This document shows, piece by piece, positions 1,993 to 60,222 of a DNA stretch of 64,000 nucleotides. Within the stretch, counting starts at the first letter, position 1; every line of letters begins with the position of its first letter. A model generated the notes under the pieces. That model was not told the DNA's origin. It did no database searches and was given only the letters and a program-made list of their open reading frames with translations. The position numbers were made by a program, and so were the translations under genes. The DNA comes from Bacteroidota bacterium (lineage in GTDB: Bacteria; Bacteroidota; Bacteroidia; Sphingobacteriales; Sphingobacteriaceae): assembly GCA_018266935.1 (NCBI GenBank), contig JAFDZL010000468.1, forward strand, positions 5,246 through 69,245, written 5' to 3'.

Positions 1993-2148
1993 ATACTGAG
2001 CAAAAAAGAGGTGTCACCCTGAGGCACTCGAAGGGTGGGCGTAACGGCCTTTGCCGGCATGCTTCGAGAACCCCAGCATGACACCTCGCCCACAAAAACT
2101 GTCACGGGCAATGACAAAGTTGACTATATTTGATACGAAACGTACTAA

Positions 2149-3102: not shown

Positions 3103-3140
3103 TATTAGATTTGCCACTTGAACCTATTCATAATTCACCA

Positions 3141-4409: not shown

Positions 4410-4418
4410 ACGGTTAAT

Positions 4419-5024
4419 CTATAATAAACGTTCCCGCTTTAACTCTTCGTCAAGGTGTTCGGCCGAGGTAAAATGAATACACTTGATACCGATCTTTTCC
4501 GCGGCGAGAATATTGCGGTGATTGTCGTCGATAAATAAAGCTTCATCGGCTTTCACGCCATAACGGTCGAGTAACAGTTGATAAAACTCCGGTGTGGGCT
4601 TGCGCATTTTCTCCGCGCCGGAAACCACGATGCCATCAAACCAGTTGAGGAAATCAAATCTTTCCAGCGCAACCGGAAAGGTCTCGGCTGACCAATTGGT
4701 AAGCGCGTATATTTTGTATTTACCTATCTCCTTAAGTTGACGAAATACTTCTACCGTATCCTGGAAGGCCTCACCCAGCATTTCATCCCAGCGCCCGTAA
4801 AAGGCGCGTATGTTTTCCTCATGCTCCGGAAATTTAGCAACCAGTATTTCCGTCCCTTCATGCAGCGGACGGCCGGCGTCCTGCTCTTCGTTCCAATCGG
4901 AAGTGACGATCTCAGCCAGGAACCATTCCATTTCGGCTTCATCCGCAAAAATTGTACGATACATGTAGCGCGGGTTCCAGTCGATGAGTACCGCGCCAAG
5001 GTCGAAAATGATGGTGTTTATCAT
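4419..5024 (-). CDS. HAD-superfamily hydrolase
   Basis: N-terminal IIFDLGAVLIDW (DxG/DxD nucleophile motif) and C-terminal FIDDN motif. Confidence 0.8.
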   Translation of the reverse strand: MINTIIFDLGAVLIDWNPRYMYRTIFADEAEMEWFLAEIVTSDWNEEQDAGRPLHEGTEILVAKFPEHEENIRAFYGRWDEMLGEAFQDTVEVFRQLKEIGKYKIYALTNWSAETFPVALERFDFLNWFDGIVVSGAEKMRKPTPEFYQLLLDRYGVKADEALFIDDNHRNILAAEKIGIKCIHFTSAEHLDEELKRERLL

Positions 5025-5055
5025 CGGGAAAGACAGAGCTATTGTCTATAATAAC

Positions 5056-5271
5056 CTACAAACGGTTGTTATCAATGTTCACCAGCGCTTTCTTCAGCGT
5101 GAACACTACATAGGCGCGGTCGCGGTTCACCAGCGTCATTATGCGCTGTATCAGGTTGTCTTCCTGGCCCTCGGTGTATTGCAGCTGCTCATCGGTCAAA
5201 CGGTTGTATTTGCGCTGTAATTTGATCTTTACACGCTCCCAATCCTTGCTGCTGATGCTGATCTCTGCCAT
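5056..5271 (-). CDS. CsbD-like general stress protein (tentative)
   Basis: 71 aa; the pattern W..VK.KL+.KY..LTDEQL.Y.EG.ED.L resembles the CsbD family. Confidence 0.45.
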   Translation of the reverse strand: MAEISISSKDWERVKIKLQRKYNRLTDEQLQYTEGQEDNLIQRIMTLVNRDRAYVVFTLKKALVNIDNNRL

Positions 5272-5398
5272 TTTTCAGAAAAGTTTCAGCAAAAATAGAA
5301 AAAAATCTGCTGTGCTGCTACTTAACAATTGGCTCAGGAATTGTTAAACCTTTACAATGGTTAGTATTCTAATCAATTGATAAACTAAATTAACTACT

Positions 5399-5980
5399 AT
5401 GAAAAAGCTTCTTTTAAGCGCCGCGTTACTTGTAGCGGTTTGCATTAGTGCGAAGGCGCAATTTAATCTTGGCATCAAGGGTGGCGTGAATTTTTCGCAT
5501 ATCGATGCGAACAATTTCCATAACTCCAGTATCACCGGCTACCAGGCAGGGCTTTTCGCCCGCGTTGGCGGTGGGGTTTATTTACAGCCCGAATTGTATA
5601 TCAGCAGCTGCGGCGGCGATTTTGATTCCTATCAAAATAACACGGCTTACAACGGCCATATCCGGTTCACTAACCTGGATGTGCCATTGCTGCTCGGTTT
5701 GCGTTTCGGCCCGAAAAACCTTAATTTACGGGTAATGGCAGGACCGGTTTACAATTATATCCTGAATAAGGATGAAACTTTTTCGGCGAATCTGACCAGC
5801 GCGTTCAACGATTTTGGCCACTACAACAACAGTACACTCGGTTACCAGGCCGGCGCGGGCATAGACCTCGGTAATGTTACCTTTGACGCCCGCTATCAGG
5901 GAGGGTTAAGTCATATCAACTCCGACTTTGGCCAGACACAGCGATTGTGGGCGCTAAGCATTGGATTCAAATTCTTTTAA
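5399..5980 (+). CDS. Outer-membrane beta-barrel (porin-family) protein
   Basis: Signal peptide ...CISAKAQ, alternating beta-strand pattern, C-terminal ...SIGFKFF. Confidence 0.7.
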   Translation: MKKLLLSAALLVAVCISAKAQFNLGIKGGVNFSHIDANNFHNSSITGYQAGLFARVGGGVYLQPELYISSCGGDFDSYQNNTAYNGHIRFTNLDVPLLLGLRFGPKNLNLRVMAGPVYNYILNKDETFSANLTSAFNDFGHYNNSTLGYQAGAGIDLGNVTFDARYQGGLSHINSDFGQTQRLWALSIGFKFF

Positions 5981-6003
5981 CGAATCGCAAAATTAAACTT
6001 ACC

Positions 6004-6037
6004 CCCTGTCCGGTTTATCCGGACAGGGCTTTTTATT
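6004..6037 (+). terminator. Rho-independent terminator
   Basis: 10-bp stem ccctgtccgg/ccggacaggg with loop tttat, followed by ctttttattt. Confidence 0.7.
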
Positions 6038-6079
6038 TGAGGTTTATGATACTACGTGAAGCGCGCTGAAATTGCGTTG

Positions 6080-6223
6080 CTATGCGACAAGAGCGTTGTT
6101 GGCGCGGCAGGCAAAGTGATCGTGCCAAAATAACGTCGTCTTCTCAGGCAGTTGGGTATCGGCGGCGCACACAAATGCTTTACCTGCTTCAAATTGCTCA
6201 TGGCCTTTTTTCGACTGGCCGTG
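6080..6223 (-). pseudogene. Relic of a DUF1800-like gene (47-codon open stretch)
   Basis: The minus-strand frame reads ...LPEKTTLFWHDHFACRANNALVA*. LFWH(N/D)HFA is the signature I associate with DUF1800 proteins. There is no start codon and no remainder of the gene. Confidence 0.35.
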
Positions 6224-6313
6224 CTAAGCATGGTTTAAGAAGCACGCGAACAATTTTCTTAATTGATATTTAAATAACTTATTATTAGATTCGAAAAATC
6301 GAAACCCTGATCA

Positions 6314-6544
6314 GTGAAAAGACTATTGACCTTAATCACGTTACTTTCTATTGTTTCGGCCGCCAAAGCGCAACTGCGGCCATTTGGCAACATCGATACA
6401 GCCGACCTGAAATCCACATCCTGCGATTTTGAAAAAGATGCGCACGCTGAAGTGTTGTTTGGATCTAAATACCTTGACTTTCTTGAATTCTTTAAAAACA
6501 TTGCGCTTATTCGAAATGAGCAAATCGTATTGATGAAGAGCTGA
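6314..6544 (+). pseudogene. Internally deleted remnant of a DUF3857-family paralogue
   Basis: In this 76-aa ORF the N-terminus (signal peptide, then ADLK..CDFEKDAHAEVLF) parallels residues 1-55 of the 6607 gene. The C-terminus (RNEQIVLMKS*) parallels that gene's last 10 aa (MNEQIVLKKA*). Confidence 0.55.
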
Positions 6545-6606
6545 TGCGCTGACTATGAGATGACCAAAACCATTATATTCCAGCTAACCTTAACTTAACA
6601 CAAAAC

Positions 6607-8550
6607 ATGAAAAAGTTATTTACCCTGATTTTATGCTGCGCGGCAGCGATTGGTGCCAAAGCACAGACACCGGCAATTCCCGCCATTGAATCTATCGGAA
6701 AAGTAAACCAGGCCGACCTTGATCTAAAAAAATGTGATTTTGAGCCAGACGCCAATGCCGAAGTACTTTTTGATAAAGGAACCGTTTACTTCAGCATAAA
6801 CCCCAACGACGCCACGGTGGTACTTGAGGAGCGTAAGCGGATCAAAGTGTTTAATGATAACGGTAAAAGTGCGGCAAATGTACGCATAGAGTATTATGGC
6901 AATAACCATGAAGAATGGATTGAAAACATACAGGCTGAAACTATTAATCCCAATAACGGAAGCCTGGAAATAGTTAAAGTAGATAAAAAGCAGATCTATA
7001 CCCAGCGCGTAGATGATGATTATTGGTCGGTTACTTTCACCTTTCCGGATGTCAAAGCCGGGTCGATACTGGATTTTAAATACACACGTGAAAGCAAGAA
7101 TATCGGCGCGCTTCCATTTTGGTATTTTCAGATGGGGATACCGGTCAGATATAGTGAATACGCGGCCACCATATACAACGGCCTTTTTTATAAGAACTTG
7201 CTCCATGCCAGCCAGCCGACCGTGAAACTTGAACGTGACCCTAACAGTAACCAAATCACCGACATTGCATTGGCTAATGTCCCTTCAGTAAACGAGGAGC
7301 CTTATTTTACAGCGATTGACGACAATGTGGAGTATCTTTTTTCACAGCTATCAAGTGTTAATATACCCGGTTATGTCAATACCTGGTCAGAAACCTGGAA
7401 CCGGGTTGGCGAGGATGAGGCGGGATTTGACAACTTCGGAGGGCAATTCAGAAGAAAACTCAACGGTGAAGAAGATATCCTTACCCACGCCAAAGGGCTA
7501 AAAACAAACGATGAGAAAATAGCATACATTTTTAATGCTGTCAAAAACAACATGAAATGGAATGGCATCTATTCGCGTGTTACAGACGATGGCACGTCTA
7601 AAGCCTGGGATAAAAAGATTGGCAACTCGGCTGAATTGAATTTGATGGTATATCACCTGCTTATGCGTGCCGGAATTAACGCTTTGCCGATAATGCTAAG
7701 TACAAAAAAACATGGTAAGGTCAATCCTACATTTTCAAACAGGTACCAGTTTAATACCACAGCAGTTTATGTTCCGGTTGACAGCACAACCAATTATGTA
7801 CTTGATGCTACCAATAAGTACAATTTATACAACGTAATTCCCGAGAACCTGCTTAACTCTTATGGGCTGACAATAGATAAGGAAAATAAAAAATACGACC
7901 TGGTATTTATACAAAATCCCAGCCCGGTAAGGAATATGGTAATGATCACTGCCGATATCAAACCCGATGGCAAGATGGATGGTTCGGCACAAGTCAGCAG
8001 CTTAAGCTATAACAAGATCAAAGAAGAGGAGAATTATAACATCAACGGCGAAAAGAAATATACCGACTCACTGAAGAAGGATAATAATGACCTAACAATC
8101 TCCTCTATTAAGATGGAAAATATGGGGATAGATTCGCTTCCGCTCACCCGGACCATCAATTTCAGTCTCGACCTTACGGGTTCTGATGGCACCTATATCT
8201 ATTTTAAGCCGAATCTTTTCGAGCCGTTCGGAGGCAATCCGTTCCTCGCTGAAAAGCGGACAACGGACATCGACTTCAGGTTCTTGAGAAATGATGTGAT
8301 CATGGGCAGCTACAAGATTCCCGCGGGGTACAAGAGCGATGCTCTGCCCAAAAGCGTTAAAATGGATATGTCCGATCAAAGTATTAGCTTCAAGCGCCTG
8401 GTATCGGAACAAGATGGTGTTATCGTAGTGCGATACACCGTTCTATACAAGCAGGCAATATTCTTCAAGGAAAATTATGACGAACTGCACGAATTTTACA
8501 AAAAGATGTACGAATTGATGAACGAGCAGATAGTACTTAAAAAAGCATGA
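6607..8550 (+). CDS. DUF3857 / transglutaminase-like domain protein (catalytic Cys and His apparently replaced)
   Basis: 647 aa with a signal peptide. The segment KKIGNSAELNLMVYHLLMRAGINALP aligns with the Cys-containing core of the next gene. Confidence 0.75.
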   Translation: MKKLFTLILCCAAAIGAKAQTPAIPAIESIGKVNQADLDLKKCDFEPDANAEVLFDKGTVYFSINPNDATVVLEERKRIKVFNDNGKSAANVRIEYYGNNHEEWIENIQAETINPNNGSLEIVKVDKKQIYTQRVDDDYWSVTFTFPDVKAGSILDFKYTRESKNIGALPFWYFQMGIPVRYSEYAATIYNGLFYKNLLHASQPTVKLERDPNSNQITDIALANVPSVNEEPYFTAIDDNVEYLFSQLSSVNIPGYVNTWSETWNRVGEDEAGFDNFGGQFRRKLNGEEDILTHAKGLKTNDEKIAYIFNAVKNNMKWNGIYSRVTDDGTSKAWDKKIGNSAELNLMVYHLLMRAGINALPIMLSTKKHGKVNPTFSNRYQFNTTAVYVPVDSTTNYVLDATNKYNLYNVIPENLLNSYGLTIDKENKKYDLVFIQNPSPVRNMVMITADIKPDGKMDGSAQVSSLSYNKIKEEENYNINGEKKYTDSLKKDNNDLTISSIKMENMGIDSLPLTRTINFSLDLTGSDGTYIYFKPNLFEPFGGNPFLAEKRTTDIDFRFLRNDVIMGSYKIPAGYKSDALPKSVKMDMSDQSISFKRLVSEQDGVIVVRYTVLYKQAIFFKENYDELHEFYKKMYELMNEQIVLKKA

Positions 8551-8551
8551 G

Positions 8552-10486
8552 ATGACGCCTTATCAAAAAATAACATATACACTCGCTTTTGCAGGGCTTT
8601 GTTTGCTGTCAGTCGGAAAGGTATATGGCCAGGACATTCCTAAGGAGCTTTATTCGGCAGCAGGCATACCTGATTCGTTGAAAGAGAATGCGAATTCAAT
8701 TGTGCGTTACAGTATGGACGATTGTAATGTCGAAGGGCCGGGCAAGATGCAAATCAAACATCACAGTTTGATTACTATTTTAAACGAAAAGGGCGACGAA
8801 GAAGCTATATTCCGGTATAGCTATAATCGAAAATATGATACATACCGGTATATTGACATCCATGTATATGACGAAAATGGCAAGATAATAAAGAAATATC
8901 ACAAAGGTGATATGTACGATGGAGCTGCAACAAGCTACGAAACCTTGATAAGCGATGACCGGATATTGGAGCTTAGACATGCTGTTGCCAAGTACCCGGA
9001 GACCATTGAAGTTGAATATGAAGAAGACATGACCAGCAACGTTGGTATTGGCAGTTGGCTTATACAGCAGAATCAGCAAGCAGTGCAGAATTCTTCCTAT
9101 CAGATCACCATCGACAAAAACGCCGGCTTCAAGTACTTCAACAATAACACTAATATAAAACCCGGAAAAAGCACTGATGGGAATATGGACATTTATACAT
9201 GGGGAGTTTCTAATTTGAGAGCATTTAAGTTGGAGGAAGGTGGTAAAGCATGGCGGGTTCTGCCGAAAATTACGTTTTCGCAAGATAAATTTAATCTATA
9301 TGGCAATCCAGGCGACATTAGTAGCTGGCAGAACTATGGAAAATGGCAGCTAGACCTGAATTCGGATGTTTGCAGCCTTAGTCCGGCGAGGACTGCCGAG
9401 ATTAAAAAAATGACAGATACGATTAGGTCAGATAAAGACAAAGCTCGCTTTTTGTATCATTATCTGCAGGAGAACACAAGGTATGTGAGTATACAGCTTG
9501 GTATTGGTGGATTTAAGCCGTTCCCCGCGACATTTGTAGATGACAAAAAGTACGGTGACTGCAAAGGCCTGGTAAACTACATGTACGCGATGCTTAAGGC
9601 GGCCGGTATAAATTCATATTATGCAATAGTAAATGCGGGTACAAATGCTGAACCGGCAAACCCATCATTTCCGTATGATTACTTTAACCATATCATTTTA
9701 TGTATTCCATTTAAAAATGATACCACCTGGCTTGAATGTACTAATAATCACATGCCTTTTGGCGTTCTCGGTACTTTTACCGAAAACCGCAATGCATTGC
9801 TTGTCACTGAGGACGGTGGCAAATTAGTAAATACACCAAAAAGCACGGCTCAGGAAAATCAATTCAATAGCGAGGCTCATATAGATTTGCAGGCGGACGG
9901 CAGTGCCAAAACACACGTTAAAATTTTGAGCACCGGCGAATATAGATGGCTTTATTTGGAATACACTGCCGCTAAATTAGATGAGCAAAAGCAATTTTGG
10001 ATGGAACAATTAGGTATGAAACAGCCGAATAGCCTGGATATTGAGCAGGGAAAGGATATAAACGGAGTAAAGCAAATCGACCTCAACATGGATTACGATA
10101 AATTTTGCGATGTGATGGCCGCCGACAAACAGTTTTATCAATCTTCAGCGTTTAAATTATGTGCGCTAACTGTACCCTTGATTGAAAAGCGAAAGTTTGA
10201 TTATTATTTCGAACACCCAATGCAGAAGTCATGTGTCACCACTATTGAACTCCCGCAAGGTTACGAAGTCGAATCACTTCCTCCTAACGCGAGCCTCAAA
10301 TTCACTTATGGCACTTACGATGTAAACTACACCTATAACAAGGATAAGAACCAGGTAGTGAGCACGGCAAAATTCGTATTGAACAACCAGGTTATACCTG
10401 CCGCCAAATACAATGAAATGCAGCAGTTCATGGATGCCGTAACCAGGGCAGAGAACAAAAAACTGGTACTGCATAAGAAGGCTTAA
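8552..10486 (+). CDS. DUF3857 / transglutaminase-like cysteine protease-fold protein
   Basis: 644 aa with a signal peptide. Has the transglutaminase-core-like YGDCKGLVNYMYAMLKAAGI and a downstream FNHIIL. Starts 2 nt after the previous stop. Confidence 0.8.
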   Translation: MTPYQKITYTLAFAGLCLLSVGKVYGQDIPKELYSAAGIPDSLKENANSIVRYSMDDCNVEGPGKMQIKHHSLITILNEKGDEEAIFRYSYNRKYDTYRYIDIHVYDENGKIIKKYHKGDMYDGAATSYETLISDDRILELRHAVAKYPETIEVEYEEDMTSNVGIGSWLIQQNQQAVQNSSYQITIDKNAGFKYFNNNTNIKPGKSTDGNMDIYTWGVSNLRAFKLEEGGKAWRVLPKITFSQDKFNLYGNPGDISSWQNYGKWQLDLNSDVCSLSPARTAEIKKMTDTIRSDKDKARFLYHYLQENTRYVSIQLGIGGFKPFPATFVDDKKYGDCKGLVNYMYAMLKAAGINSYYAIVNAGTNAEPANPSFPYDYFNHIILCIPFKNDTTWLECTNNHMPFGVLGTFTENRNALLVTEDGGKLVNTPKSTAQENQFNSEAHIDLQADGSAKTHVKILSTGEYRWLYLEYTAAKLDEQKQFWMEQLGMKQPNSLDIEQGKDINGVKQIDLNMDYDKFCDVMAADKQFYQSSAFKLCALTVPLIEKRKFDYYFEHPMQKSCVTTIELPQGYEVESLPPNASLKFTYGTYDVNYTYNKDKNQVVSTAKFVLNNQVIPAAKYNEMQQFMDAVTRAENKKLVLHKKA

Positions 10487-10495
10487 ATTTGCCTG

Positions 10496-11140
10496 ATGAT
10501 ATTCAGGCTGGACGAACGCTTGCTTTTCCCCGACCCGGCCCTGGCCGAGGAAGACGGTTTATTGGCGATTGGCGGCGACTTGTCGGTCGGCCGCCTTTTG
10601 CTGGCTTACCGGAACGGTATTTTCCCCTGGTATAATGAGGATACGCCCATACTGTGGTATTCGCCGCATGAGCGCTTTGTATTATTTCCCGGCGAATTGA
10701 AAATCTCAAAAAGCATGGGACAGGTATTACGTTCGGGTAAATTCCGGGTGACCTGCAATACTTGTTTTGAAGATGTGATAGAAGCCTGTTCTGCTGCGGA
10801 ACGCAAAGGCCAGGACGGAACATGGATCATAAAAGAGATGAAGGAAGCCTACATACGGTTACATCGTGAAGGTCATGCGCATTCGGTTGAAGTTTGGGAA
10901 GCAGGTAAACTGGTTGGAGGATTGTACGGCGTTGAAATAGGTAAAATATTTTGCGGCGAAAGTATGTTCAGCAAGGTAAGCAATGCATCGAAAGCCGCTT
11001 TGATCGACCTGTGTCAAAGCGGGAAATACAAACTGATCGACTGCCAGGTGCATACGGAGCACCTGGAATCTATGGGCGCGCGAATGATAACCCGGGAAGA
11101 ATATATGCGCATCCTGCAAAATGCGGAAGGGAAAAGTTAG
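10496..11140 (+). CDS. aat: Leucyl/phenylalanyl-tRNA--protein transferase
   Basis: LLAYRNGIFPWY, ...HSVEVW..G.LVGGLYG..IG..FCGESMF motifs. Confidence 0.9.
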   Translation: MIFRLDERLLFPDPALAEEDGLLAIGGDLSVGRLLLAYRNGIFPWYNEDTPILWYSPHERFVLFPGELKISKSMGQVLRSGKFRVTCNTCFEDVIEACSAAERKGQDGTWIIKEMKEAYIRLHREGHAHSVEVWEAGKLVGGLYGVEIGKIFCGESMFSKVSNASKAALIDLCQSGKYKLIDCQVHTEHLESMGARMITREEYMRILQNAEGKS

Positions 11141-49180: not shown

Positions 49181-49513
49181 TTATTCGAAGCTAAAGAACT
49201 CTGTCAATAAATCGCAAACCTGGCGGCATGTTTTTTCATCCATGATTCCCAGTCGCTTTATCAATCGCAATTTTGATACTGAACGAATATGATCGAGGGC
49301 AATCTGCCCGGATTTATTTTTGAAGGTACAATTTATGCGGTGAGGGTAAGGTTTATTTGCAGACGTCATCGCAGCAACGGTGACTGTGCCCAACAAGCCA
49401 TTTACTTCATCCGGCGAAATAACCAGGCATGGGCGCGTTTTACTGATTTCGTGACCGATGACAGGGTCGAGATTGATGAGCCAAACTTCAAAACGCTTAA
49501 CTACCATTGCCAT
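49181..49513 (-). CDS. mazF: PemK/MazF-family endoribonuclease toxin
   Basis: RFEVWLINLDPVIGHEISKTRPCLVISPDEVN is typical of MazF/PemK. Confidence 0.85.
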   Translation of the reverse strand: MAMVVKRFEVWLINLDPVIGHEISKTRPCLVISPDEVNGLLGTVTVAAMTSANKPYPHRINCTFKNKSGQIALDHIRSVSKLRLIKRLGIMDEKTCRQVCDLLTEFFSFE

Positions 49514-49755
49514 TCCTTATCGGTAAACTCGTCAGAAAAACCCTCTAATAGCTCATCATCAGGCGAATATCCGTTTTGTATGGCCAACTGCAATTGTTCC
49601 GTCCATCCTGTACGGGCTTTTTTCCTCGACTTTATAAGAATACCTTCTTCTGTTGGGTCGATCTCGATATCCTCGGAAAGATCGTATTGCTGTATTAACG
49701 ACTTCGGCAGCCGGATACCAAATGAATTTCCAATTTTAACCAGCTTAGTTTCCAT
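49501..49755 (-). CDS. mazE: AbrB/MazE-family antitoxin
   Basis: LVKIGNSFGIRLPKSLIQQ is a SpoVT/AbrB-type swapped hairpin. It overlaps mazF by 13 nt. Confidence 0.8.
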   Translation of the reverse strand: METKLVKIGNSFGIRLPKSLIQQYDLSEDIEIDPTEEGILIKSRKKARTGWTEQLQLAIQNGYSPDDELLEGFSDEFTDKEWQW

Positions 49756-51757: not shown

Positions 51758-52135
51758 TTACACGTGCTGCAAAATAAACCCGGCATCCACATCAAGCTGA
51801 GTGTGTACAGCTTTTAAGAAATTCACATCGGGCTTTTGCTTGCCGGTCATGATCATGGAAAGTTTGGTATCGCTGATGTTGAGTTTCTTTGCCAGGTCCT
51901 TTTGTTTTAGGTGGAGCTCATACATGCGCATTTCGATCATGCCGGTAAGGGTTTGGGGCAGGGCTATGGTGTATTTGTTCTGCTCGTACTGCTGCGCGGC
52001 CAAAGCCAGTTCCCTGATCTCGGCCAGTTCTTCTTTCGAAACATTTTCGCTCCCTTTGGCCATCAGGCTGTCGATGTGGTTCATTACAGCTTTGTAATCG
52101 TGTTCGTTCTTGACGTTAGTGATTGTTTCCATCAA
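51758..52135 (-). CDS. XRE/HigA-type HTH protein (orphan antitoxin-like)
   Basis: The C-terminal HTH reads LKQKDLAKKLNISDTKLSMIMTGKQKP. No HigB-like partner is seen. Confidence 0.7.
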   Translation of the reverse strand: MMETITNVKNEHDYKAVMNHIDSLMAKGSENVSKEELAEIRELALAAQQYEQNKYTIALPQTLTGMIEMRMYELHLKQKDLAKKLNISDTKLSMIMTGKQKPDVNFLKAVHTQLDVDAGFILQHV

Positions 52136-52210: not shown

Positions 52211-52218
52211 TAAATTTG
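52211..52218 (+). promoter_or_regulatory. Candidate -7 box (TAAATTTG) 3 nt upstream of the ATG
   Basis: The 14-mer TAAATTTGTGTATG is identical to 62567-62580. Confidence 0.45.
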
Positions 52219-52221
52219 TGT

Positions 52222-52425
52222 ATGGAAACATTGATCATGCATCCGCAGAACGAAGAACAGGCATCAGCGTTGAAGGCGATTGCCAGGGCATGGAAAATTA
52301 GTGTTGAAACCAGCCCTTATAACCCCGACTTCGTAGCCAAAATAAAAGCAAGTAAAAAGGAAGCCGAAGCCGGAAAATTCACGACCCTCGATCCCGCTAA
52401 ATCCGTATGGGACAATTTAAAGTAA
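52222..52425 (+). CDS. Putative antitoxin of the YoeB-type toxin
   Basis: 67 aa (METLIMHPQNEEQ...). Overlaps the toxin gene by 19 nt. Confidence 0.55.
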   Translation: METLIMHPQNEEQASALKAIARAWKISVETSPYNPDFVAKIKASKKEAEAGKFTTLDPAKSVWDNLK

Positions 52426-52688
52426 TCGTATCCGATAAGGCTAAGAAGGACTTATTAGAAATACAAAAATCCGGCGACAAGGCGTCCATCAAAAAGGTAG
52501 AACAGATCATCAGCGAATTATACCTGCATCCCGAAACAGGTACGGGCAAACCCGAAAGGCTAAAATTTGAACTGGCGGGCTACTGGTCAAGGCGGATTAA
52601 TAAAAAAGACAGGCTGATCTATTTCATCGAGCATCATATTGTTACCGTCACAGTGGTTTCGGCCGTAGGGCATTACAGCGACAAATAA
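52407..52688 (+). CDS. yoeB: YoeB/Txe-family mRNA interferase toxin
   Basis: HPETGTGKPERLK...WSRRINKKDRLIY...GHY matches E. coli YoeB (GKGKPEPLK...WSRRITEEHRLVY...RYHY). Confidence 0.85.
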   Translation: MGQFKVIVSDKAKKDLLEIQKSGDKASIKKVEQIISELYLHPETGTGKPERLKFELAGYWSRRINKKDRLIYFIEHHIVTVTVVSAVGHYSDK

Positions 52689-52795
52689 TGTAAGCTATCC
52701 CGACAGCTTGTAGAAGTCCACCGCCAACCAAAACCTGCCCACTGCTACTGCAACTGCCACTCCTCCCTAATTTCTACTTTTAGTAATTTTACAAA

Positions 52796-53233
52796 ATGGA
52801 CGTGCACAGCAAGGAAACCCGCAGCTACAATATGTCGCGGATACGGAGTAAGGATACCAAGCCTGAAATGCTGGTTCGCAGGTTTCTGCACAAAAAAGGT
52901 TTTCGCTACCGGCTGCATGTAAAAGACCTGCCCGGCAAACCGGATATCGTATTGCCCAAATACAAAACTGTGATCTTTATACATGGATGTTTCTGGCATG
53001 GGCATGAGGGATGCAAATATTTTGTTGCTCCCCGTTCAAATAGAGAATACTGGCTACCAAAAATTATTAGGAATATTGAGCGCGATCAAACTGCTGAAAG
53101 GTTATTAAAAATTGAAGGTTGGAAGGTACTTAAGGCTTGGGAATGCCAATTAAAGAATAGTATAAGGAACAAAACCTTAGAATTTTTAATAGGGAGAATT
53201 AATGAAAATCATAATGTCCCTTGCAAGAAATAA
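52796..53233 (+). CDS. vsr: Very-short-patch repair endonuclease
   Basis: SRIRSKDTKPE, LPGKPDIVLPKYKTVIFIHGCFWHGHE.C and W..KI..N..RD motifs. Confidence 0.9.
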   Translation: MDVHSKETRSYNMSRIRSKDTKPEMLVRRFLHKKGFRYRLHVKDLPGKPDIVLPKYKTVIFIHGCFWHGHEGCKYFVAPRSNREYWLPKIIRNIERDQTAERLLKIEGWKVLKAWECQLKNSIRNKTLEFLIGRINENHNVPCKK

Positions 53234-54053
53234 GATGAACATTATTTTTTTCGACTACATAGCTTAATCTGTCCGTTATATTAATTCTTTTAGAAGCCTC
53301 TTTCCCGCGATTTAATAAATTTTCAGTTTGCCCCATCCCACCAGAAAAGGGATGCACTTCTATATCTTTCATGAGTAATAAAAGATATTTTAAGCTATCG
53401 AAATCCTCATCACGCCATTCTTTGAACTGGCCTATAAACCCGTTGTCAAAAGAAACAGAATAGCTCTGATAGTTTAAATATCTGACTATTAATTTTTCGG
53501 TGTCGATATGCTTCGAGTAAAACAAATTTGCCCACTCATTGAGTTCTATACTGCTTATATCGTCTAGTTGACATAAATTATATATTTCAAAAGAGTCGAT
53601 TACTTGATCATTTATTAATTTGTTGACTGTGATCTTTCGCTTTTGCCAGAACAGATGAGTATTTATGCTGATCGACGGAACTTGTTTGATATGAGCCACG
53701 GGGAGACCAATTGGCTCTTCATTAGTTGGAGAATCTGGATCAGCAATTTTATAATTGCTTTCGTAAAAAACTGACAACTCGATGTTATTTAAATCATCGA
53801 TAAAGGGACGCCTACATAATGATAGAACAGCGTTTTTGATCGTTGAATTATTTAGTGAGGTTATCCATTCCGAAAAATTTAAGGTGGTAGTTACTTGAAC
53901 AGACGAGTAATTTTGCGGGAAACAGATATGAGTAAACTCATATCTGTCTTTTGCTTCATTGAAAACTTTTAAAAATACCCTAATTTTTTCTTCTAAGATT
54001 TGACTGCTCTCTGACAACGGGTGGAACGAAAGTTCGTTAATAACAAGATCCAT
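53199..54053 (-). CDS. Unknown ~200-aa N-terminal domain fused to a C-terminal YoeB/RelE-type RNase domain (fourth gene of the cassette)
   Basis: The C-terminal FKEWRDEDFDSLKYLLLLMKDIEVHPFSGGMGQTENL...SKRINITDRLSYV...CKGHYDFH is collinear with YoeB. The ATG at 54053 lies 1 nt after the ATPase stop; an alternative ATG is at 54113. Confidence 0.75.
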   Translation of the reverse strand: MDLVINELSFHPLSESSQILEEKIRVFLKVFNEAKDRYEFTHICFPQNYSSVQVTTTLNFSEWITSLNNSTIKNAVLSLCRRPFIDDLNNIELSVFYESNYKIADPDSPTNEEPIGLPVAHIKQVPSISINTHLFWQKRKITVNKLINDQVIDSFEIYNLCQLDDISSIELNEWANLFYSKHIDTEKLIVRYLNYQSYSVSFDNGFIGQFKEWRDEDFDSLKYLLLLMKDIEVHPFSGGMGQTENLLNRGKEASKRINITDRLSYVVEKNNVHLISCKGHYDFH

Positions 54054-54054
54054 T

Positions 54055-55188
54055 CTAGATAAGTTTAAGCAATTGATTGCTCCATTCGTCAGTGAGGTGC
54101 CTGGGATATTCACTTAGTTCCCCATTCTTATCGACCGAAATATTAGTGATTTTAGAGTATTGTTCGCTTTCCTCAACCTGCTTCTCAAAGTAAAAAACAG
54201 CCGATCTGTCGATTAATTCGTTATTTTGTTTTATTGCCACCCTTATTCCATTCAATATATGATCGCTGTGTGTTTCTACAATGACCTGAACATCATTCAA
54301 CGCTGCCAGAGCTATTAATTTCCCAATTTCAGCTTGGCCCCGAGGATGAACATGAGATTCAGGATTTTCAATTATGATTAATTCACCTGATTTTGCAGCT
54401 AACAAGGACGTAACGACAGGCAATGCATAGGAAATTCCGAATCCAACGTTGTTTGGCTTAAACCTATTTGTGTTGCCAAAATTTGGTTGTTTAAAAACAT
54501 ATTCTAAAAGTACGAAATCAGAATTGGGCACGGACGTGGTTCGAATGTTAATATCTGGAGATATCTCACCCATCCATAGATTTATCTGATTTATCAAGGT
54601 CTTGTTTATCAATTCTTTATTAGTAATTGGATCAATTACTTTGGAAGATGAATGCAACATGTTGTCAAACGCAATATCGTCGTTTCCGTGCACTTCAATA
54701 AAGTGAGTTGTGTACTCTCCGTTATTACCAACGTTATTGTTTGATACAACGCTGGAATATGATTTACTATGAATTGAAGTAGGGTCTATACGACTTGCGT
54801 TTAGATACTGAAAGTTATTACTAAATAAAACCTCATTGAAAATATTCTCCGCAATTTCCTTTTGTTTTAGATTAAAGACATCAGCTTCAATTACATAGTT
54901 TGTCTCAAATAGTTGTTGTACGCCGTCCGTGAATGAAATATCAATAGATAAGCTTTCTTGTTTGCTATATTGATAAAGCGCGTCTTTAGTGTTGCCAATG
55001 CTGATGTAATAGCCATTTAGTTGTATTTCACCCAATCTTAATTTATCCGACTGTTTCAATAGTAATAGGGATTGGATAAATGTCGATTTGCCCATTCCAT
55101 TCAAACCCATGACAAGATTCAAATTTTTTAAAGCAAATTTGTTATTCTTGATGGACTTGAAATTCTTTATATGGATTGTTCTAATCAT
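54055..55188 (-). CDS. SMC/ABC-like AAA ATPase with a DUF3696-like C-terminal motif (third gene of the cassette)
   Basis: IKNFKSI...GLNGMGKST (Walker A), LIIIENPESHVHP (Walker B), VETHSDHILNGIR. Confidence 0.85.
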   Translation of the reverse strand: MIRTIHIKNFKSIKNNKFALKNLNLVMGLNGMGKSTFIQSLLLLKQSDKLRLGEIQLNGYYISIGNTKDALYQYSKQESLSIDISFTDGVQQLFETNYVIEADVFNLKQKEIAENIFNEVLFSNNFQYLNASRIDPTSIHSKSYSSVVSNNNVGNNGEYTTHFIEVHGNDDIAFDNMLHSSSKVIDPITNKELINKTLINQINLWMGEISPDINIRTTSVPNSDFVLLEYVFKQPNFGNTNRFKPNNVGFGISYALPVVTSLLAAKSGELIIIENPESHVHPRGQAEIGKLIALAALNDVQVIVETHSDHILNGIRVAIKQNNELIDRSAVFYFEKQVEESEQYSKITNISVDKNGELSEYPRHLTDEWSNQLLKLI

Positions 55189-56857
55189 TTTGAGTTATAT
55201 TTTCGATCAATTCAGAAATTCTCTCAAATCTATAAAGTACTCGGTTTCTATCGCTCGTTGACGTAGATATTGCGGCCTGGAAAGAGTTATCCTGAGTAAG
55301 TAAGCGAATAAATGCTCTAATAAAATCGTCTCTATTTTCTAAGATTCGTTCTTTTATTTCTGAATTTGCAAGTGCAAATAATACGGAAAAAACATCAAAC
55401 AATGCCTTGTTTATTGGTTTTTTTCTTGATGTATAAAGATCAATTTTTCTAAAAGAATTTACCCCAAACAACTCCGAGTTAAATGCCATCGACTGTGTGA
55501 AAGCATTTTTTATACTATTTTTTTCAGCGGCGGAAAGGTCATAGATTCTAGCCATTGCCTTGCTCATAAATGAATCCAGGTCAGGCGAATAATTCTGAAA
55601 TCCTAAGAGGTAGAATGCCAGAAATCGATTGGCAAAATCTCGGTCTAACATTCTTTGCGTTCTTATGGAATAGCTGGTTGCTTTTTTGAACTCATCGCTA
55701 TCAGCTAACTCTTTAATAAACTTTGCTGGTGCACCTTGATATAACGCATGCCGTATTTCTTGAGACTCTAAAATAAGTCCGCCGGTGTTAATTCTCTTGA
55801 AGATGTTAAACTTTACATCATCCGGAGTGCCGGGGTTAATAATATATGCAACAATTTGAGTTTCCTCAATTAAGCGTTGGAGGTCTCGGTCCAACTCATC
55901 GAAACCATAACCATTCAGTTGTGAGAGAAATTCAAGATTAGTAAGTTTCAATGTTTTATCTAAGGCAAAATTTCGAATACTACTAAGTCTCTGCAAGCCG
56001 TCTACTACAAGCCATTTGTTTTTATTCGAACCATCAAAATAAAATGCCGGGAGAGGAAATCTTATCAAAATTGATTCGATTAATCTGCTCTGTTTCGTCG
56101 CATCCCATAAGTCATCCTTCCTTTGAAATTCTGGGTACAGGTCTATTTCTGGTGGATTTTGTTTAAGTCTTTTTATGATTAAATCAATGTTAATAAGCCT
56201 ATTATCTATATTTATAAGTGATGGATCGAATGGTTTTTGCATCAATGAGGTTGAAATATCATTGATCTCCTCTTCCACATAGTCTAAAGTCGTTTCTCCT
56301 ACGTTATTATCCAAAATGGGTGGATTATAAACAAGCAATCTATCTAATTCAGGATACGTCAAATCTATGAATTCATATAACGCATGATCGACAGCATTTA
56401 AACAGTAAAACAATGCAGCAATGTCTTGCCTTGGCTCCTCCGGTTTTATAACCTGAACGGTTTGATTGCTATTTGTATTCAATCCTATTATCGGGATATT
56501 AGAGCACCAATAGTAGGCGGTACTATCAACGGCTAATACCTCATGCTTTTGTATCGATTTTTTTAAGACAAAGCCTAGTTCGAGATGAACAATCCAATCG
56601 TCATTATAATTCGGGCCTCCTTTTTTATCCCTTATTTTTCCAAAAGCTCGTAATCCTTGATCCCAAGCAGTGGGACTCCCTTTATTGTTATCAGAACCTA
56701 GCCAAATAAAGCAAAAAACACCAGATGTTACTTCCGATGGAACCTGTTTGCACTTTACGAATATTTCTACAGTTGGATTTTGTATACCTTTTCGGCTATC
56801 TATTGCAGTAATATCGTCGACGCTGTCTTTACCAAGTCGAATAATGCAAAACCTCAT
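55181..56857 (-). CDS. DUF262-domain protein with an uncharacterised ~200-aa N-terminal domain and no DUF1524/HNH half (second gene of the cassette)
   Basis: YPEFQRKDDLWDATKQSRLIESILIRFPLPAFYF...WLVVDGLQRLSSI is the DGQQR-type signature. Its stop overlaps the ATPase ATG as ATGATTAG. Confidence 0.85.
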   Translation of the reverse strand: MRFCIIRLGKDSVDDITAIDSRKGIQNPTVEIFVKCKQVPSEVTSGVFCFIWLGSDNNKGSPTAWDQGLRAFGKIRDKKGGPNYNDDWIVHLELGFVLKKSIQKHEVLAVDSTAYYWCSNIPIIGLNTNSNQTVQVIKPEEPRQDIAALFYCLNAVDHALYEFIDLTYPELDRLLVYNPPILDNNVGETTLDYVEEEINDISTSLMQKPFDPSLINIDNRLINIDLIIKRLKQNPPEIDLYPEFQRKDDLWDATKQSRLIESILIRFPLPAFYFDGSNKNKWLVVDGLQRLSSIRNFALDKTLKLTNLEFLSQLNGYGFDELDRDLQRLIEETQIVAYIINPGTPDDVKFNIFKRINTGGLILESQEIRHALYQGAPAKFIKELADSDEFKKATSYSIRTQRMLDRDFANRFLAFYLLGFQNYSPDLDSFMSKAMARIYDLSAAEKNSIKNAFTQSMAFNSELFGVNSFRKIDLYTSRKKPINKALFDVFSVLFALANSEIKERILENRDDFIRAFIRLLTQDNSFQAAISTSTSDRNRVLYRFERISELIENITQND

Positions 56858-56860
56858 TTT

Positions 56861-58114
56861 TTAAATTGCTTTAGCTAATGCCAAGTTTGATAGGCGCTCT
56901 AAGGAATTTTGTAACGGTTGAAATAATTCTCTGTTTTGACTTTCTACCCGCCTAAGAATTCCACGAGCGGCGACCGGACTTAGAAAATATTTCGAGTCTA
57001 TATTTTCAGTACTAATAATTGATATTAGGTTGGTAGTTACTTTATTGGAAGGAGCATCGTAAACTTTACAATCAAAAGCTTGATTTTTAGCAGATATCCC
57101 ACCTGTCCGCCACTTCAAATGTTCGTTGTCTGAATTTGAAATATCCTGACATCGGATGCCTTTTTTCGTAAAATCTTTATAGTTTGCTAACGTTGTATCA
57201 AGGTCATCTTCCATAGTCATTTGGAAGGCTTTTTTTATTCTTGTAGCTATCCACTCTATGACAGGAACAGACACAGCGTTTCCAATGGCATGATACCTTA
57301 AGCTGTCGTAATCCAAAATGTTAGTTTTTGAAAATGTTTCGGGCGACGTCCAGTTTTTAGGAAAGCCTTGCAACGCCTCCGCCTCTGACGGGATCAGTCT
57401 TCTGACGGCTTCATCATAACAAATATATGTTCTGCTCCAATCTGTTCCGGTATGTCTGCCTGAGGTAGCAGCCAAACAATAGGCCAATGAAGGAACAGTG
57501 AAACCGGCTATATCATTTTTGTGTGGGGTTACAAATTCGCTTCTTGGCGAGCCCGTTTTTTCTGAACCATTGAATTCATGTAGGACATATGCCGCTTTAT
57601 TTACATTGTTTTTCCAAGCGCATATATAAACTCTCTGCCTTGATTGAGGCACTCCAAAAAACTTACTATTAAATACTCGCCATGAAACCCCGTAACCTAA
57701 ATTATTAAATGAATCCAGGATGATCCTGAAGTCGTTGCCGTTATGGGAACTAAGGAGGCCTAAGACATTTTCAAGCAAAACAACATCCGGCATCCTCTTT
57801 TCTATTAATTGCAAAAAATCGTAAAATAAACCAGAGTTTTTGCCTTTAAGGCCTTGCCTGCCCATTGAGCCTCTAGCTACTGACACATCTTGGCAGGGAA
57901 ATCCTGCACACCAGATTTTTGCTTCGGGGAGAGAGCCCGGGTCAACACTTAAAATGTCATAATCACATATTGTCCGAGGCCAGTGTTTCTTTAAGACAGA
58001 TTGACAAAATTGATTTATCTCGCATTGATAGGTGATTTTAAAACCTTGTCTTTCAAAGCCTAAGTCAAACCCGCCAATGCCAGTGAAAAACGAATTAACA
58101 GAAAGTTTTGCCAT
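56861..58114 (-). CDS. dcm: DNA (cytosine-5)-methyltransferase (first gene of the cassette)
   Basis: Motif I FTGIGGFDLGF, IV GFPCQDVS, VI LLENV, VIII QSRQRVYI, X GNAVSVPV, then a ~130-aa tail after motif X. Start taken at MAKLSVNSF; the ORF is open up to 58174. Confidence 0.9.
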   Translation of the reverse strand: MAKLSVNSFFTGIGGFDLGFERQGFKITYQCEINQFCQSVLKKHWPRTICDYDILSVDPGSLPEAKIWCAGFPCQDVSVARGSMGRQGLKGKNSGLFYDFLQLIEKRMPDVVLLENVLGLLSSHNGNDFRIILDSFNNLGYGVSWRVFNSKFFGVPQSRQRVYICAWKNNVNKAAYVLHEFNGSEKTGSPRSEFVTPHKNDIAGFTVPSLAYCLAATSGRHTGTDWSRTYICYDEAVRRLIPSEAEALQGFPKNWTSPETFSKTNILDYDSLRYHAIGNAVSVPVIEWIATRIKKAFQMTMEDDLDTTLANYKDFTKKGIRCQDISNSDNEHLKWRTGGISAKNQAFDCKVYDAPSNKVTTNLISIISTENIDSKYFLSPVAARGILRRVESQNRELFQPLQNSLERLSNLALAKAI

Positions 58115-58357
58115 GATATTCTTTGTTTCACAAATTAACATAAAAGGTTTGTATTTGTATGTTTTATTAATCAAGACATGCGACCTTTATTAACATGTGT
58201 TTATGGGTGAATTCGGTGGCCCTAATGTGTTACTAGTCTGCAATCACGTGGAGGATCGAAACAGTTATCCGCTCCGTGCTTAATCCAATGCCTCACAGAC
58301 ATGCATGTTACATCTCATGTGTTCAGCGCGTAATGTCTAACAACCCCATATTCGCCC

Positions 58358-59541: not shown

Positions 59542-59618
59542 ATCCGGAGGCAGGAGGCAGTACAGCTCGAGGGAAAAACCCGCTCGTGGATCGATTTTGA
59601 TTTCGGAACCGATTGTTG

Positions 59619-59626
59619 TAAATTTG
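59619..59626 (+). promoter_or_regulatory. Candidate -7 box (TAAATTTG) 3 nt upstream of the ATG
   Basis: TAAATTTGgttATG has the same geometry as at 52211 and 62567. Confidence 0.45.
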
Positions 59627-59629
59627 GTT

Positions 59630-59863
59630 ATGGTACGCACAATTATAACACCTGAAAATACGAGTGTAAAGCTGTCTATTCCGCCTGATTATGTCGGCAA
59701 AAAGATAGAGGTACTGTATTATCCTGTTGACGAAGTAACCGAAGAGCAACAACCGGCTGCAAAAACCATGTCGGCCTTCAAAGGTATATTATCTGAGGCG
59801 GAAGGGAACGCATTGCAGGAATATGTGAAAAGATCAAGGGAGGAATGGGACAGTCGTTTTTAA
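59630..59863 (+). CDS. Putative VapB-type antitoxin
   Basis: MVRTIITPENTSVKLSIPPDYVGKKIEV..., 77 aa. Its stop overlaps the toxin ATG as TAATG. Confidence 0.6.
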   Translation: MVRTIITPENTSVKLSIPPDYVGKKIEVLYYPVDEVTEEQQPAAKTMSAFKGILSEAEGNALQEYVKRSREEWDSRF

Positions 59864-60222
59864 TGGATACCAATGTCATCATTGGTTATTTAAGTAAACT
59901 CCTTCCCGCTGAAGCGTCAGCATCCATAGATCAGCTTCCTGCTGTCATATCAGTCATTACCCGCATAGAACTACTTGGTTGGTACAATGCAACACCCGCC
60001 CAATTGGAAAAGCTTCAATTGTTCATCGGTAATGCGCAGGTTTACGATCTCAATGAAGAAATTATTGTTCAAACGATCACTTTGAGGCAACAGCACAAAA
60101 TAAAGCTGCCCGACGCTGTTATTGCTGCAACCGCTTTGGTGTACGATCATACTTTACTCACCCGCAATACCGGAGATTTTAAAAATATCATTGGTCTGCG
60201 CATGGAAAGTCCGTGGGCATGA
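59863..60222 (+). CDS. vapC: PIN-domain toxin (VapC family)
   Basis: MDTNVIIGYL, ...ISVITRIELL... and LLTRNTGDF show the PIN acidic-residue pattern. Confidence 0.85.
   Translation: MDTNVIIGYLSKLLPAEASASIDQLPAVISVITRIELLGWYNATPAQLEKLQLFIGNAQVYDLNEEIIVQTITLRQQHKIKLPDAVIAATALVYDHTLLTRNTGDFKNIIGLRMESPWA

Follow-up and report, generated by a model that had tools for sequence, protein, structure and literature searches.

A candidate YoeB-type effector gene, nsnC, in a Menshen anti-phage operon flanked by a cytosine methylase and Vsr

A YoeB-like RNase domain at the end of a longer protein, with no antitoxin gene beside it, raises the question of what the protein does and what keeps it in check. 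Such a gene lies on the reverse strand of the 64,000-nucleotide stretch of DNA analysed here (the window). The first-pass annotation had taken it for a modified toxin of a toxin-antitoxin system. Judged from its sequence the gene is nsnC (= ptuZ), the third gene of the Menshen anti-phage operon NsnABC/ptuXYZ, and matches to the PADLOC NsnA, NsnB and NsnC models replace the earlier reading with that of a Menshen component. We think it likely that NsnC is the Menshen effector, held by NsnB, with a YoeB RNase as its output and a methylase-linked trigger. The features are collected in Table 1.

The nsnC reading frame runs from an ATG at 54053 to a stop codon at 53199-53201, giving 284 residues. 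All homologues start at this ATG (M-D/E-L-I/V-x-N-E-L-S), as does the identical NCBI protein, P0001, which is named 'type II toxin-antitoxin system YoeB family toxin'. Initially 304 residues had been counted, from an upstream GTG at 54113 which lies inside the preceding gene, and the YoeB-like stretch had been placed at residues 218-304; since the homologues start at the ATG, it corresponds to residues 198-284, and the nucleotide range given for it (approximately 53202-53462) was right. About 197 full-length homologues of 284-290 residues cover the whole query, so the proposed fusion behind an N-terminal domain of about 200 residues, in a single reading frame, is borne out. The AF2 model of the full-length protein has a pLDDT of 91.9 and a pTM of 0.85 and is confident through the linker. 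Residue conservation was followed in 42 homologues which are 43-81% identical to the window protein.

Table 1. Positions of the nsnC domains, its putative catalytic codons and the other cassette genes in the window.
Feature	Position	Strand	Basis
nsnC (= ptuZ), 284 aa, two-domain candidate effector	53199..54053	-	ORF, PADLOC NsnC, Pfam YoeB_toxin
NsnC N-terminal alpha/beta domain (inPIN/PIN'), aa 1-196, presumed NsnB docking site	53466..54053	-	PADLOC NsnC
NsnC C-terminal YoeB/RelE-fold domain, aa 197-284	53202..53465	-	PF06769, Foldseek
Putative catalytic codons E244, R256, R262	53322-53324, 53286-53288, 53268-53270	-	
Putative catalytic codons H280, Y281	53214-53216, 53211-53213	-	
nsnB (= ptuY), ABC-type ATPase, presumed transducer holding NsnC	54055..55188	-	PADLOC, Pfam
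NsnB DUF3696, aa 328-376	54061-54207	-	Pfam
nsnA (= ptuX), 558 aa, ParB-like DUF262 sensor	55181..56857	-	PADLOC match from aa 193, GmrSD_N
NsnA N-terminal reader domain, aa 1-~185	~56300-56857	-	'type II' Menshen
C5 cytosine DNA methyltransferase, first cassette gene	56861..58174	-	Pfam DNA_methylase 1e-60, NCBIfam dcm 5.5e-63
Vsr very-short-patch repair endonuclease, last cassette gene	52796..53233	+	Pfam 8.1e-36, NCBIfam vsr 4.5e-46

The assignment of the C-terminus to the YoeB family was confirmed both by profile and by structure. Pfam YoeB_toxin (PF06769) matches residues 203-281 over positions 2-80 of its 80, with an E-value of 6.6e-10 and 39.3 bits against a gathering threshold of 27, and phmmer against the PDB gives the YoeB chains 8yxv (1e-05), 6l8e (3.8e-05) and 2a6q (0.047). 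Foldseek aligns the AF2 model with 3oei, 8yxv, 2a6r and 2a6q at target TM-scores of 0.83-0.86, with rmsd values of 2.4-2.7 Å and E-values down to 6e-07, which gives it the YoeB/RelE fold, an antiparallel sheet carrying two N-terminal helices. By BLASTP, NsnC is 33% identical to E. coli YoeB over 70 residues (E = 2e-07), and its reported likeness to the free-standing YoeB at 52407-52688 is of the same order, 34% over 68 residues (E = 6e-07). The residues E244, R256, R262, H280 and Y281 are equivalent to Glu46, Arg59, Arg65, His83 and Tyr84 of YoeB, respectively. The first, third, fourth and fifth of these, which had been read as an intact catalytic set, indeed show no variation among the 42 homologues, at least 90% of which also have R256. 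On the residue roles given for YoeB by Feng et al. 2013 (PMC3814384), E244 would be the general base of the domain and H280 its general acid, and R256, R262 and Y281 would be its transition-state/orienting residues. By analogy with YoeB, NsnC of this type would be expected to be a toxic, ribosome-dependent RNase.

The likeness to YoeB is not complete. The equivalent of Glu63, which in YoeB stacks on the third A-site base (PMC3814384), is T260, a variable position; the YoeB motif 'xGxWSRR' is replaced by a family-specific 'RGKEASKR', and a three-residue extension (x-F-H) is conserved at the C-terminus of NsnC. The NCBIfam Txe/YoeB equivalog TIGR02116 scores NsnC at 34.5 bits, below its cut-off of 51.8, while the free-standing neighbour reaches 72.1; given that shortfall, the substrate specificity of NsnC may differ from that of YoeB. 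Compared to E. coli YefM-YoeB and Axe-Txe, therefore, the fold (TM 0.84-0.86 to 2a6q/2a6r) and the five residues listed above are held in common, whereas NsnC is a two-domain protein of 284 residues and not a stand-alone toxin of about 85, has no Phd/YefM antitoxin, is presumably controlled by an ATPase, and carries the changes at Glu63, in the WSRR motif and at the C-terminus together with the low equivalog score.

A large N-terminal regulatory domain need not take such a protein off the ribosome. Cami1 (CARF-RelE), an immune effector of type III CRISPR systems, is a ribosome-dependent RelE-fold RNase with a domain of that kind, and RelE fusions to a regulatory domain can thus still work on ribosomes. 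The sensor domain of Cami1 (PDB 8phb, 8phj) binds cyclic oligoadenylate, whereas the N-terminal domain of NsnC is presumed to dock to the ATPase, and beyond the RelE fold Foldseek found no meaningful structural match between the two.

The genes in front of nsnC identify the operon. Best PADLOC E-values are 2e-133 for NsnA, 1.1e-103 for NsnB and 2.2e-30 for NsnC. In NsnA, Pfam finds GmrSD_N only, without the DUF1524 HNH domain, as is characteristic of a Menshen NsnA; NsnB, directly 3' of it, has AAA_15/AAA_21 and a C-terminal DUF3696; and NsnC, directly 3' of nsnB, ends in YoeB and begins with a domain that is matched over residues 1-176 by seven PADLOC NsnC models, and so does not belong to an unrecognised family as was first supposed. 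The genes lie close together: nsnA overlaps nsnB by 8 nt, and the TAG stop of nsnB lies 1 nt ahead of the nsnC ATG. A scan for promoters and terminators from 51.5 to 58.6 kb gave counts no different from those of shuffled sequence. Homologues of NsnC (47-81% identity) directly follow NsnA-NsnB in all five of the other contexts examined: a Mucilaginibacter MAG, M. galii, Elizabethkingia anophelis, and a Bacteroidales type I R-M operon in a MAG and in a Logan contig.

This architecture is not novel, as two papers of 2025 already describe the operon. Li et al. (NAR 2025, PMC12065111) define NsnC as an inPIN domain with a polymorphic effector and list YoeB among the effector domains, and Gerdes (mBio 2025, PMC11980606) named the equivalent operon ptuXYZ, with PtuZ proteins of the form PIN'-YoeB from Flavobacterium and Bacteroides, the same phylum as the window copy. 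Since YoeB-type NsnC has been published, the window gene is one more ordinary case within a known family. It shares with the published examples the gene order DUF262, ABC ATPase-DUF3696, two-domain alpha/beta plus YoeB-fold BECR RNase, and nothing essential differs: the window copy is of the 'type II' class, in which NsnA has an extra N-terminal domain, an m5C methylase and Vsr lie on either side of its operon, and the PIN-like assignment of its N-terminal domain was not reproduced by Foldseek. The Menshen system of S. silvestris, which has a different effector, protects against T2, T4, T6 and Fado, and an association of Menshen with methylases and type I R-M systems was reported in a published survey.

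YoeB-type NsnC as such therefore adds little to a published defence system, all three genes of which are recognised by standard defence-finder profiles. The practical value lies in correcting annotation. NCBI and JGI call approximately 200 proteins 'type II TA system YoeB family toxin', which is misleading because these proteins lack an antitoxin and are putative immune effectors.

NsnB also matches the AriA, PtuA and GajA models in the PADLOC search. In PARIS (AriA-AriB), Septu (PtuA-PtuB) and Gabija (GajA) a nuclease effector is likewise held or regulated by an ABC/OLD-type ATPase oligomer; in the window, by contrast, the effector combines a presumed docking domain with a RelE-superfamily RNase in place of a Toprim or HNH nuclease, and there is an additional, separate DUF262 sensor protein.

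The observation that no antitoxin gene adjoins nsnC holds, the upstream neighbour being the ABC ATPase NsnB and the downstream one the convergent vsr, and none was found near the nsnC homologues in the five related contexts examined. From published modelling, an antitoxin would not be expected. AF3 models of NsnB4-NsnC2 place the N-terminal domain of NsnC in a clamp formed by a pair of DUF3696 domains in 23 of 24 systems (PMC12065111). Among the three roles that had been guessed for this domain, it is docking to the upstream ATPase/DUF262 pair that these models support.

Comparison with the closest relative, the locus L007, is consistent with such a contact. The methylase, NsnA and NsnB are 95% identical between the two loci, and NsnC 81%. 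Within NsnB, residues 1-327 are 95-97% identical while the DUF3696 segment falls to 86%, and values along NsnC are 72-89%. The divergence of DUF3696 alongside NsnC may be taken as local support for NsnB-NsnC contact. Positive selection on NsnC was considered as the cause and rejected: dN/dS comes to 0.04-0.05 (near 0.05 for both domains) at a saturated dS (>2), indicating purifying selection. Saturated dS together with such a low ratio points to replacement of the allele under purifying selection rather than to a recognition surface under positive selection, so that on these alignments the divergence is due to mosaic ancestry by recombination rather than to diversifying selection.

The following scheme, drawn from the literature and by analogy, would account for the operon. 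In the uninfected cell NsnC would be harmless without an antitoxin, its N-terminal domain being clamped by two DUF3696 tails of the NsnB tetramer. Incoming DNA would be sensed by NsnA and signalled to NsnB, whose binding or hydrolysis of ATP would release NsnC or activate it allosterically. The YoeB domain would then cut mRNA, most likely, like YoeB itself, in the A site of the ribosome; translation would stop and the infection would be aborted. At the window locus the trigger is probably a site that the co-encoded methylase recognises and that is unmethylated, which would amount to an R-M-like sensor coupled to an RNase output.

A different account of the output dispenses with the ribosome: the N-terminal domain would bind a specific phage or host RNA and present it to the YoeB domain. 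This is target recognition as modelled by Li et al. (PMC12065111), who proposed inPIN as an RNA-binding target recogniser. We regard this as unlikely, though it deserves to be kept in view. In its favour, YoeB acts weakly on naked RNA (PMC3814384), and NsnC has lost Glu63 and altered the loop motif. All the YoeB residues which contact A-site mRNA or G530 (E46, R59, R65, H83 and Y84; PMC3814384) are, however, kept. When the window is compared with L007, the greatest divergence in the cassette falls on NsnC and the DUF3696 end of NsnB, which would fit this account, but the saturated dS and a dN/dS of 0.04 point to allele replacement under purifying selection.

The same domain bears on a second alternative. 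It is called inactive PIN-like (inPIN or PIN') in both papers (PMC12065111, PMC11980606), a Menshen NsnC being expected to begin with a PIN-like (Rossmann-like) fold devoid of the D-E-D-D tetrad, and the AF2 model of residues 1-196 alone, with a pLDDT of 90.2, is alpha/beta. The PIN fold itself was not recovered: the best Foldseek E-value for the model was 1.3 against the PDB and 0.1 against BFVD (viral), no Pfam family matched at E ≤ 10, and a profile search of the PDB gave nothing. Three acidic residues, E7, D86 and E92, are nevertheless invariant in the 42 homologues and D165 is present in 95%, as might be seen if the domain were an active PIN-like or other metal-dependent nuclease and both domains cut. 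E7 directly follows strand beta1, the position of the first PIN aspartate, and a 2026 preprint (10.64898/2026.08.28.747851) argues that the active-site constellation is retained in the PIN domain of BECR-Tox2-type NsnC. In the model, however, D86 and E92 precede strand beta3, whereas the PIN acids follow beta3 and beta4, and the conserved acids could equally form the NsnB interface. With no match to PIN families or structures, and the domain judged inactive in the two papers, a dual nuclease appears improbable.

Quite improbable, too, is a self-contained toxin in which, as one of the first guesses had it, the N-terminal domain inhibits in cis, here by lying over the YoeB cleft like an antitoxin, and the neighbouring genes are irrelevant. 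[quoted passage not shown] The N-terminal domain, though, resembles neither Phd/YefM nor RHH antitoxins by Pfam or by the PDB profile search; it is homologous to the N-terminal domains of NsnC proteins carrying unrelated effectors, and the gene follows NsnA-NsnB at near-zero spacing in each of the five other contexts. Autoinhibition of NsnC and its docking to NsnB can coexist.

The DUF2683-YoeB pair at 52216-52688 was considered as a cross-neutralising partner and set aside. It is absent from every related locus examined and lies outside the cassette homology shared with L007, which ends at about 52790. Finally, an ordinary type II toxin mis-fused to the upstream frame by an annotation or sequencing error, as the NCBI label might suggest, is already refuted by the homologues of full length, by the conservation of both domains in one frame (dN/dS ~0.05) and by a model that is confident through the linker.

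The preferred reading, an NsnB-held effector with a methylase-linked trigger, leads to the surroundings of the operon. The cassette (m5C methylase - NsnA - NsnB - NsnC - convergent Vsr) is 5.4 kb long, low in GC and horizontally acquired. Its methylase gene ends 3 nt ahead of nsnA, and each related locus examined that spans the region has an orthologue directly upstream of its reader-domain gene. A further methylase-reader-NsnA-NsnB operon, L013, has an unrelated NsnC. Searches for fold relatives of the reader domain, by Pfam, by phmmer and with a 24-sequence profile against the PDB, gave noise only. Among 82 full-length representatives carrying this domain, 58 are McrB-like (AAA_5) and 12 NsnA-like (GmrSD_N). 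Five McrB-type loci were examined, and each has directly upstream a methylase with 46-51% identity to that of the window; three have Vsr and one has the RE_LlaJI partner gene.

LlaJI-type R-M systems consist of m5C methylases, McrB-like R1 and McrC-like R2, and LlaJI restricts unmethylated DNA (PMC1459862). The likeness of the window to them covers the cassette context only, ie the reader domain, which forms the N-terminus of the McrB-like proteins, and the orthologous methylase upstream. In the window the methylase is present but AAA_5 and McrC-like genes are both missing; NsnA(DUF262)-NsnB-NsnC take the place of the GTPase motor and the PD-(D/E)XK nuclease, and the predicted output is cleavage of RNA and not of DNA. 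A specificity cassette of m5C methylase, DNA reader (~185 residues) and Vsr thus appears exchangeable between McrB/McrC and NsnABC. The occurrence of the reader on LlaJI-like McrB, coupled with the orthologous upstream methylase, suggests R-M logic driving an RNase. We put forward tentatively, as a real possibility, that this Menshen variant is a methylation-protected, R-M-like system with an RNase output, whose specificity cassette is exchangeable with that of LlaJI-type McrB/McrC. If so, incoming DNA carrying unmethylated sites would set off arrest of translation by YoeB. Li et al. (PMC12065111) go no further than to suggest in general terms that methylases linked to Menshen might serve it, and the methylase-NsnABC-Vsr context with a LlaJI-like reader was not found in the Menshen papers examined.

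This context is the more useful result. A compact methylase-NsnABC-Vsr cassette, having its reader and methylase in common with LlaJI-type enzymes, allows two questions of the Menshen literature to be tested cleanly, what NsnA senses and whether linked methylases protect the host's own DNA, and would also test the coupling of R-M logic to an abortive-infection RNase. At the distal end of the cassette the convergent Vsr reading frame overlaps the 3' end of nsnC by 35 nt, in the window and in L007 alike.

The operon containing nsnC is a Menshen system. Seven PADLOC models for NsnC match the N-terminal 176 residues of the protein (best 2.2e-30), and the two upstream genes are matched as NsnB (1.1e-103; Pfam AAA_15/AAA_21 and DUF3696) and NsnA (2e-133; Pfam GmrSD_N, DUF262). 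The N-terminal domain, which the first-pass annotation could assign to no family, thus has one. In a survey of 1997 Menshen loci, Li et al. (NAR 2025, PMC12065111) divided NsnC into an 'inactive PIN-like' domain at the N-terminus, with 35 families, and a polymorphic effector at the C-terminus; BECR RNases make up nine of the effector families, YoeB being named as one. The operon was described independently as ptuXYZ by Gerdes (mBio 2025, PMC11980606), whose PtuZ from Flavobacterium and Bacteroides is a 'PIN'-YoeB' protein. Both the 'unknown domain' and the 'missing antitoxin' thus belong to a published family, of which this gene is a straightforward member. The earlier reading of a fused RNase domain, an absent antitoxin and docking to the upstream pair is sound, but its novelty is lost to these two papers. 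The database annotation of NsnC as a TA toxin is misleading.

The ORF had been located correctly, but its residues were numbered on a 304-aa count from GTG 54113, as in a mechanical ORF list. That extension falls within nsnB, whose TAG stop is 1 nt ahead of the nsnC ATG, and the ATG is the start in the identical NCBI protein and in all ~197 homologues. The genes of the operon are tightly packed, and nsnC is under purifying selection (dN/dS 0.04-0.05). G+C is 33-42% across ~52.8-58.2 kb and 55-60% on either flank.

Coordinates of the features discussed, in the window unless a locus is named
Feature	Position	Strand	Remarks
nsnC ORF	stop codon 53199-53201, ATG 54053	-	284 aa
NsnC tail, aa 282-284	53202-53210	-	F283 invariant, H284 in at least 90% of family
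Methylase C-terminal extension, aa ~320-437	56861-57220	-	YFLSP-AA-GILRRV-SQNR-LF-PLQ
Shadow ORF opposite vsr	52745-53005	-
DUF2683 protein	52216-52425	+	3.4e-22; overlaps YoeB
Free-standing YoeB toxin	52407-52688	+	93 aa; Pfam 5.7e-18; NCBIfam Txe/YoeB 72 bits, above cut-off
PemK/MazF toxin and MazE/AbrB antitoxin	49181-49755	-	8.6e-27 (toxin)
PIN (VapC-like) toxin and small upstream partner	59597-60222	+	1.9e-11 (toxin)
HTH_3 (HigA-like) protein	51758-52135	-	125 aa; no obvious toxin partner
Region homologous to L007	~52790-58200		L007 2861-8276
L007, ORF called opposite vsr	8058-8333	+	91 aa
L007, uncalled vsr	7821-8264		147 aa, 84% identical to window Vsr
L005, nested operon	1186-10923		Bacteroidales MAG

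The C-terminal ~85 residues of NsnC are a YoeB domain, and the catalytic set is intact, as first proposed. Pfam YoeB_toxin scored 39.3 bits (E 6.6e-10; gathering score 27 bits) and was matched from position 2 to position 80 of its 80, and phmmer against PDB sequences matched the YoeB chains 8yxv, 6l8e, 7bwf and 2a6q. BLASTP gave 34% identity to the free-standing YoeB (E 6e-07) and 33% (E 2e-07) to E. coli YoeB; the phmmer match to 2a6q covers the residues of that alignment, 13-84. By alignment, E244, R256, R262, H280 and Y281 correspond to YoeB Glu46, Arg59, Arg65, His83 and Tyr84, which supply the general base, general acid, transition-state and orienting residues in the YoeB-70S structure (PMC3814384). 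In 42 homologues (43-81% identical to NsnC) four of the five are invariant and R256 is present in at least 90%. An AlphaFold2 model from the 42-sequence alignment (pLDDT 91.9, pTM 0.85) superimposes its C-domain on YoeB/RelK crystal structures with a target TM of 0.83-0.86. There are differences from canonical YoeB: Glu63 is replaced (T260), the loop 'xGxWSRR' is 'RGKEASKR' and invariant across the family, and a conserved x-F-H tail follows the residue equivalent to the terminal, catalytic Tyr84. On the ribosome YoeB moves its C-terminal tail in forming the active site, and the added residues could change that movement.

An immune effector that joins a RelE fold to a large regulatory domain has a precedent in Cami1, a ribosome-bound CARF-RelE protein (PDB 8phj). 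For Menshen, AF3 models of 24 systems predict an NsnB tetramer; in 23 of them the NsnC N-domain is gripped by pairs of DUF3696 tails. The arrangement resembles PARIS, Septu and Gabija, in which a nuclease is released or allosterically activated by the ATPase (PMC12065111). On those models the NsnB tails would hold the NsnC N-domain here and, by the same analogy, the ATPase would release or allosterically activate NsnC. The freed domain, which has the full YoeB active site, should then cleave mRNA at the A site of the ribosome and stop translation. It is improbable that the N-domain has a second catalytic activity. Within its family E7, D86 and E92 are invariant and D165 is found in 95%, and a 2026 preprint contests the 'inactive' label for a different NsnC family (10.64898/2026.08.28.747851), but the positions of these acidic residues do not match the PIN tetrad. 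The model in which NsnB holds the NsnC N-domain is consistent with divergence from L007, a Mucilaginibacter MAG locus and the closest relative of the cassette: identity is 95-97% over NsnB residues 1-327 but falls to 86% in the DUF3696 segment and 72-89% in NsnC, as would be expected if tail and NsnC were exchanged or co-evolving as a unit.

Homology to L007 is limited to the methylase, NsnA, NsnB, NsnC and the convergent Vsr, in different genomic surroundings, and nsnC and vsr overlap by 35 nt in both. Nucleotide identity is 94-96% for methylase and nsnA, 88-91% for nsnB, and 71-83% for the DUF3696 end, nsnC and the 3' half of vsr; dS is 0.21, 0.24 and 0.71 for methylase, nsnA and nsnB, and >2 (saturated) for nsnC. 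The cassette is a mosaic, and the pattern indicates that its effector end was replaced by recombination. The public L007 record leaves vsr uncalled; the ORF called opposite it is probably a mis-annotation, and the same shadow ORF occurs in the window.

NsnA, NsnB and NsnC adjoin and are co-directional in all five other contexts examined that encode NsnC homologues: L007 (81% identity in NsnC), M. galii (L001/L002, 52%), Elizabethkingia anophelis (L003/L004, 47%) and, from both a MAG and a Logan contig, a Bacteroidales type I R-M operon (L005/L006, 52%). None of the five contains a small antitoxin-like gene. In L005/L006 the three genes sit between hsdS and hsdR; in L005 hsdM-hsdS, NsnABC and hsdR all point the same way and lie a few bases apart, one defence system nested inside another.

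NsnA carries ~190 additional N-terminal residues, and the system is therefore 'type II' Menshen. Exhaustive searching with HMMER found this reader domain in 131 representative clusters; of 82 full-length members, 58 have an McrB-like AAA_5 domain and 12 have GmrSD_N. Among the reader loci compared (L008-L013), an orthologous m5C methylase, with 46-51% identity to that of the window, lies directly upstream of the reader gene in 5/5 McrB-type loci examined, Vsr is present in three, and an McrC-like gene follows downstream (DUF2357/PDDEXK_7 in one, RE_LlaJI in another). Restriction by LlaJI-type enzymes is directed at unmethylated DNA, and their m5C methylases give protection (PMC1459862). L013 has a methylase-reader-NsnA-NsnB operon with an unrelated NsnC. 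These loci suggest a methylase and reader module common to LlaJI-type R-M systems and Menshen. On the simplest reading, which we offer tentatively, methylase and reader, with or without Vsr, would make up a specificity module that recognises the unmethylated site and to which differing effector machines couple; Li et al. went no further than asking in general terms if methylases linked to Menshen serve the system (PMC12065111). This methylase-reader-Vsr wiring is the only aspect that deserves further work. The C5 methylase also has a ~110-aa extension past its Pfam DNA_methylase match, conserved in the L009 methylase, which adjoins a reader-domain gene; tblastn matches to the L010-L012 methylases likewise reach aa 422-437.

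The DUF2683-YoeB pair, 0.5 kb from nsnC, falls outside the cassette conserved in L007. It is a free-standing type II TA pair whose antitoxin is DUF2683, in contrast to Phd/YefM-type YoeB modules. Further TA-like modules (PemK/MazF, VapC-like, HigA-like) lie around the low-GC island.
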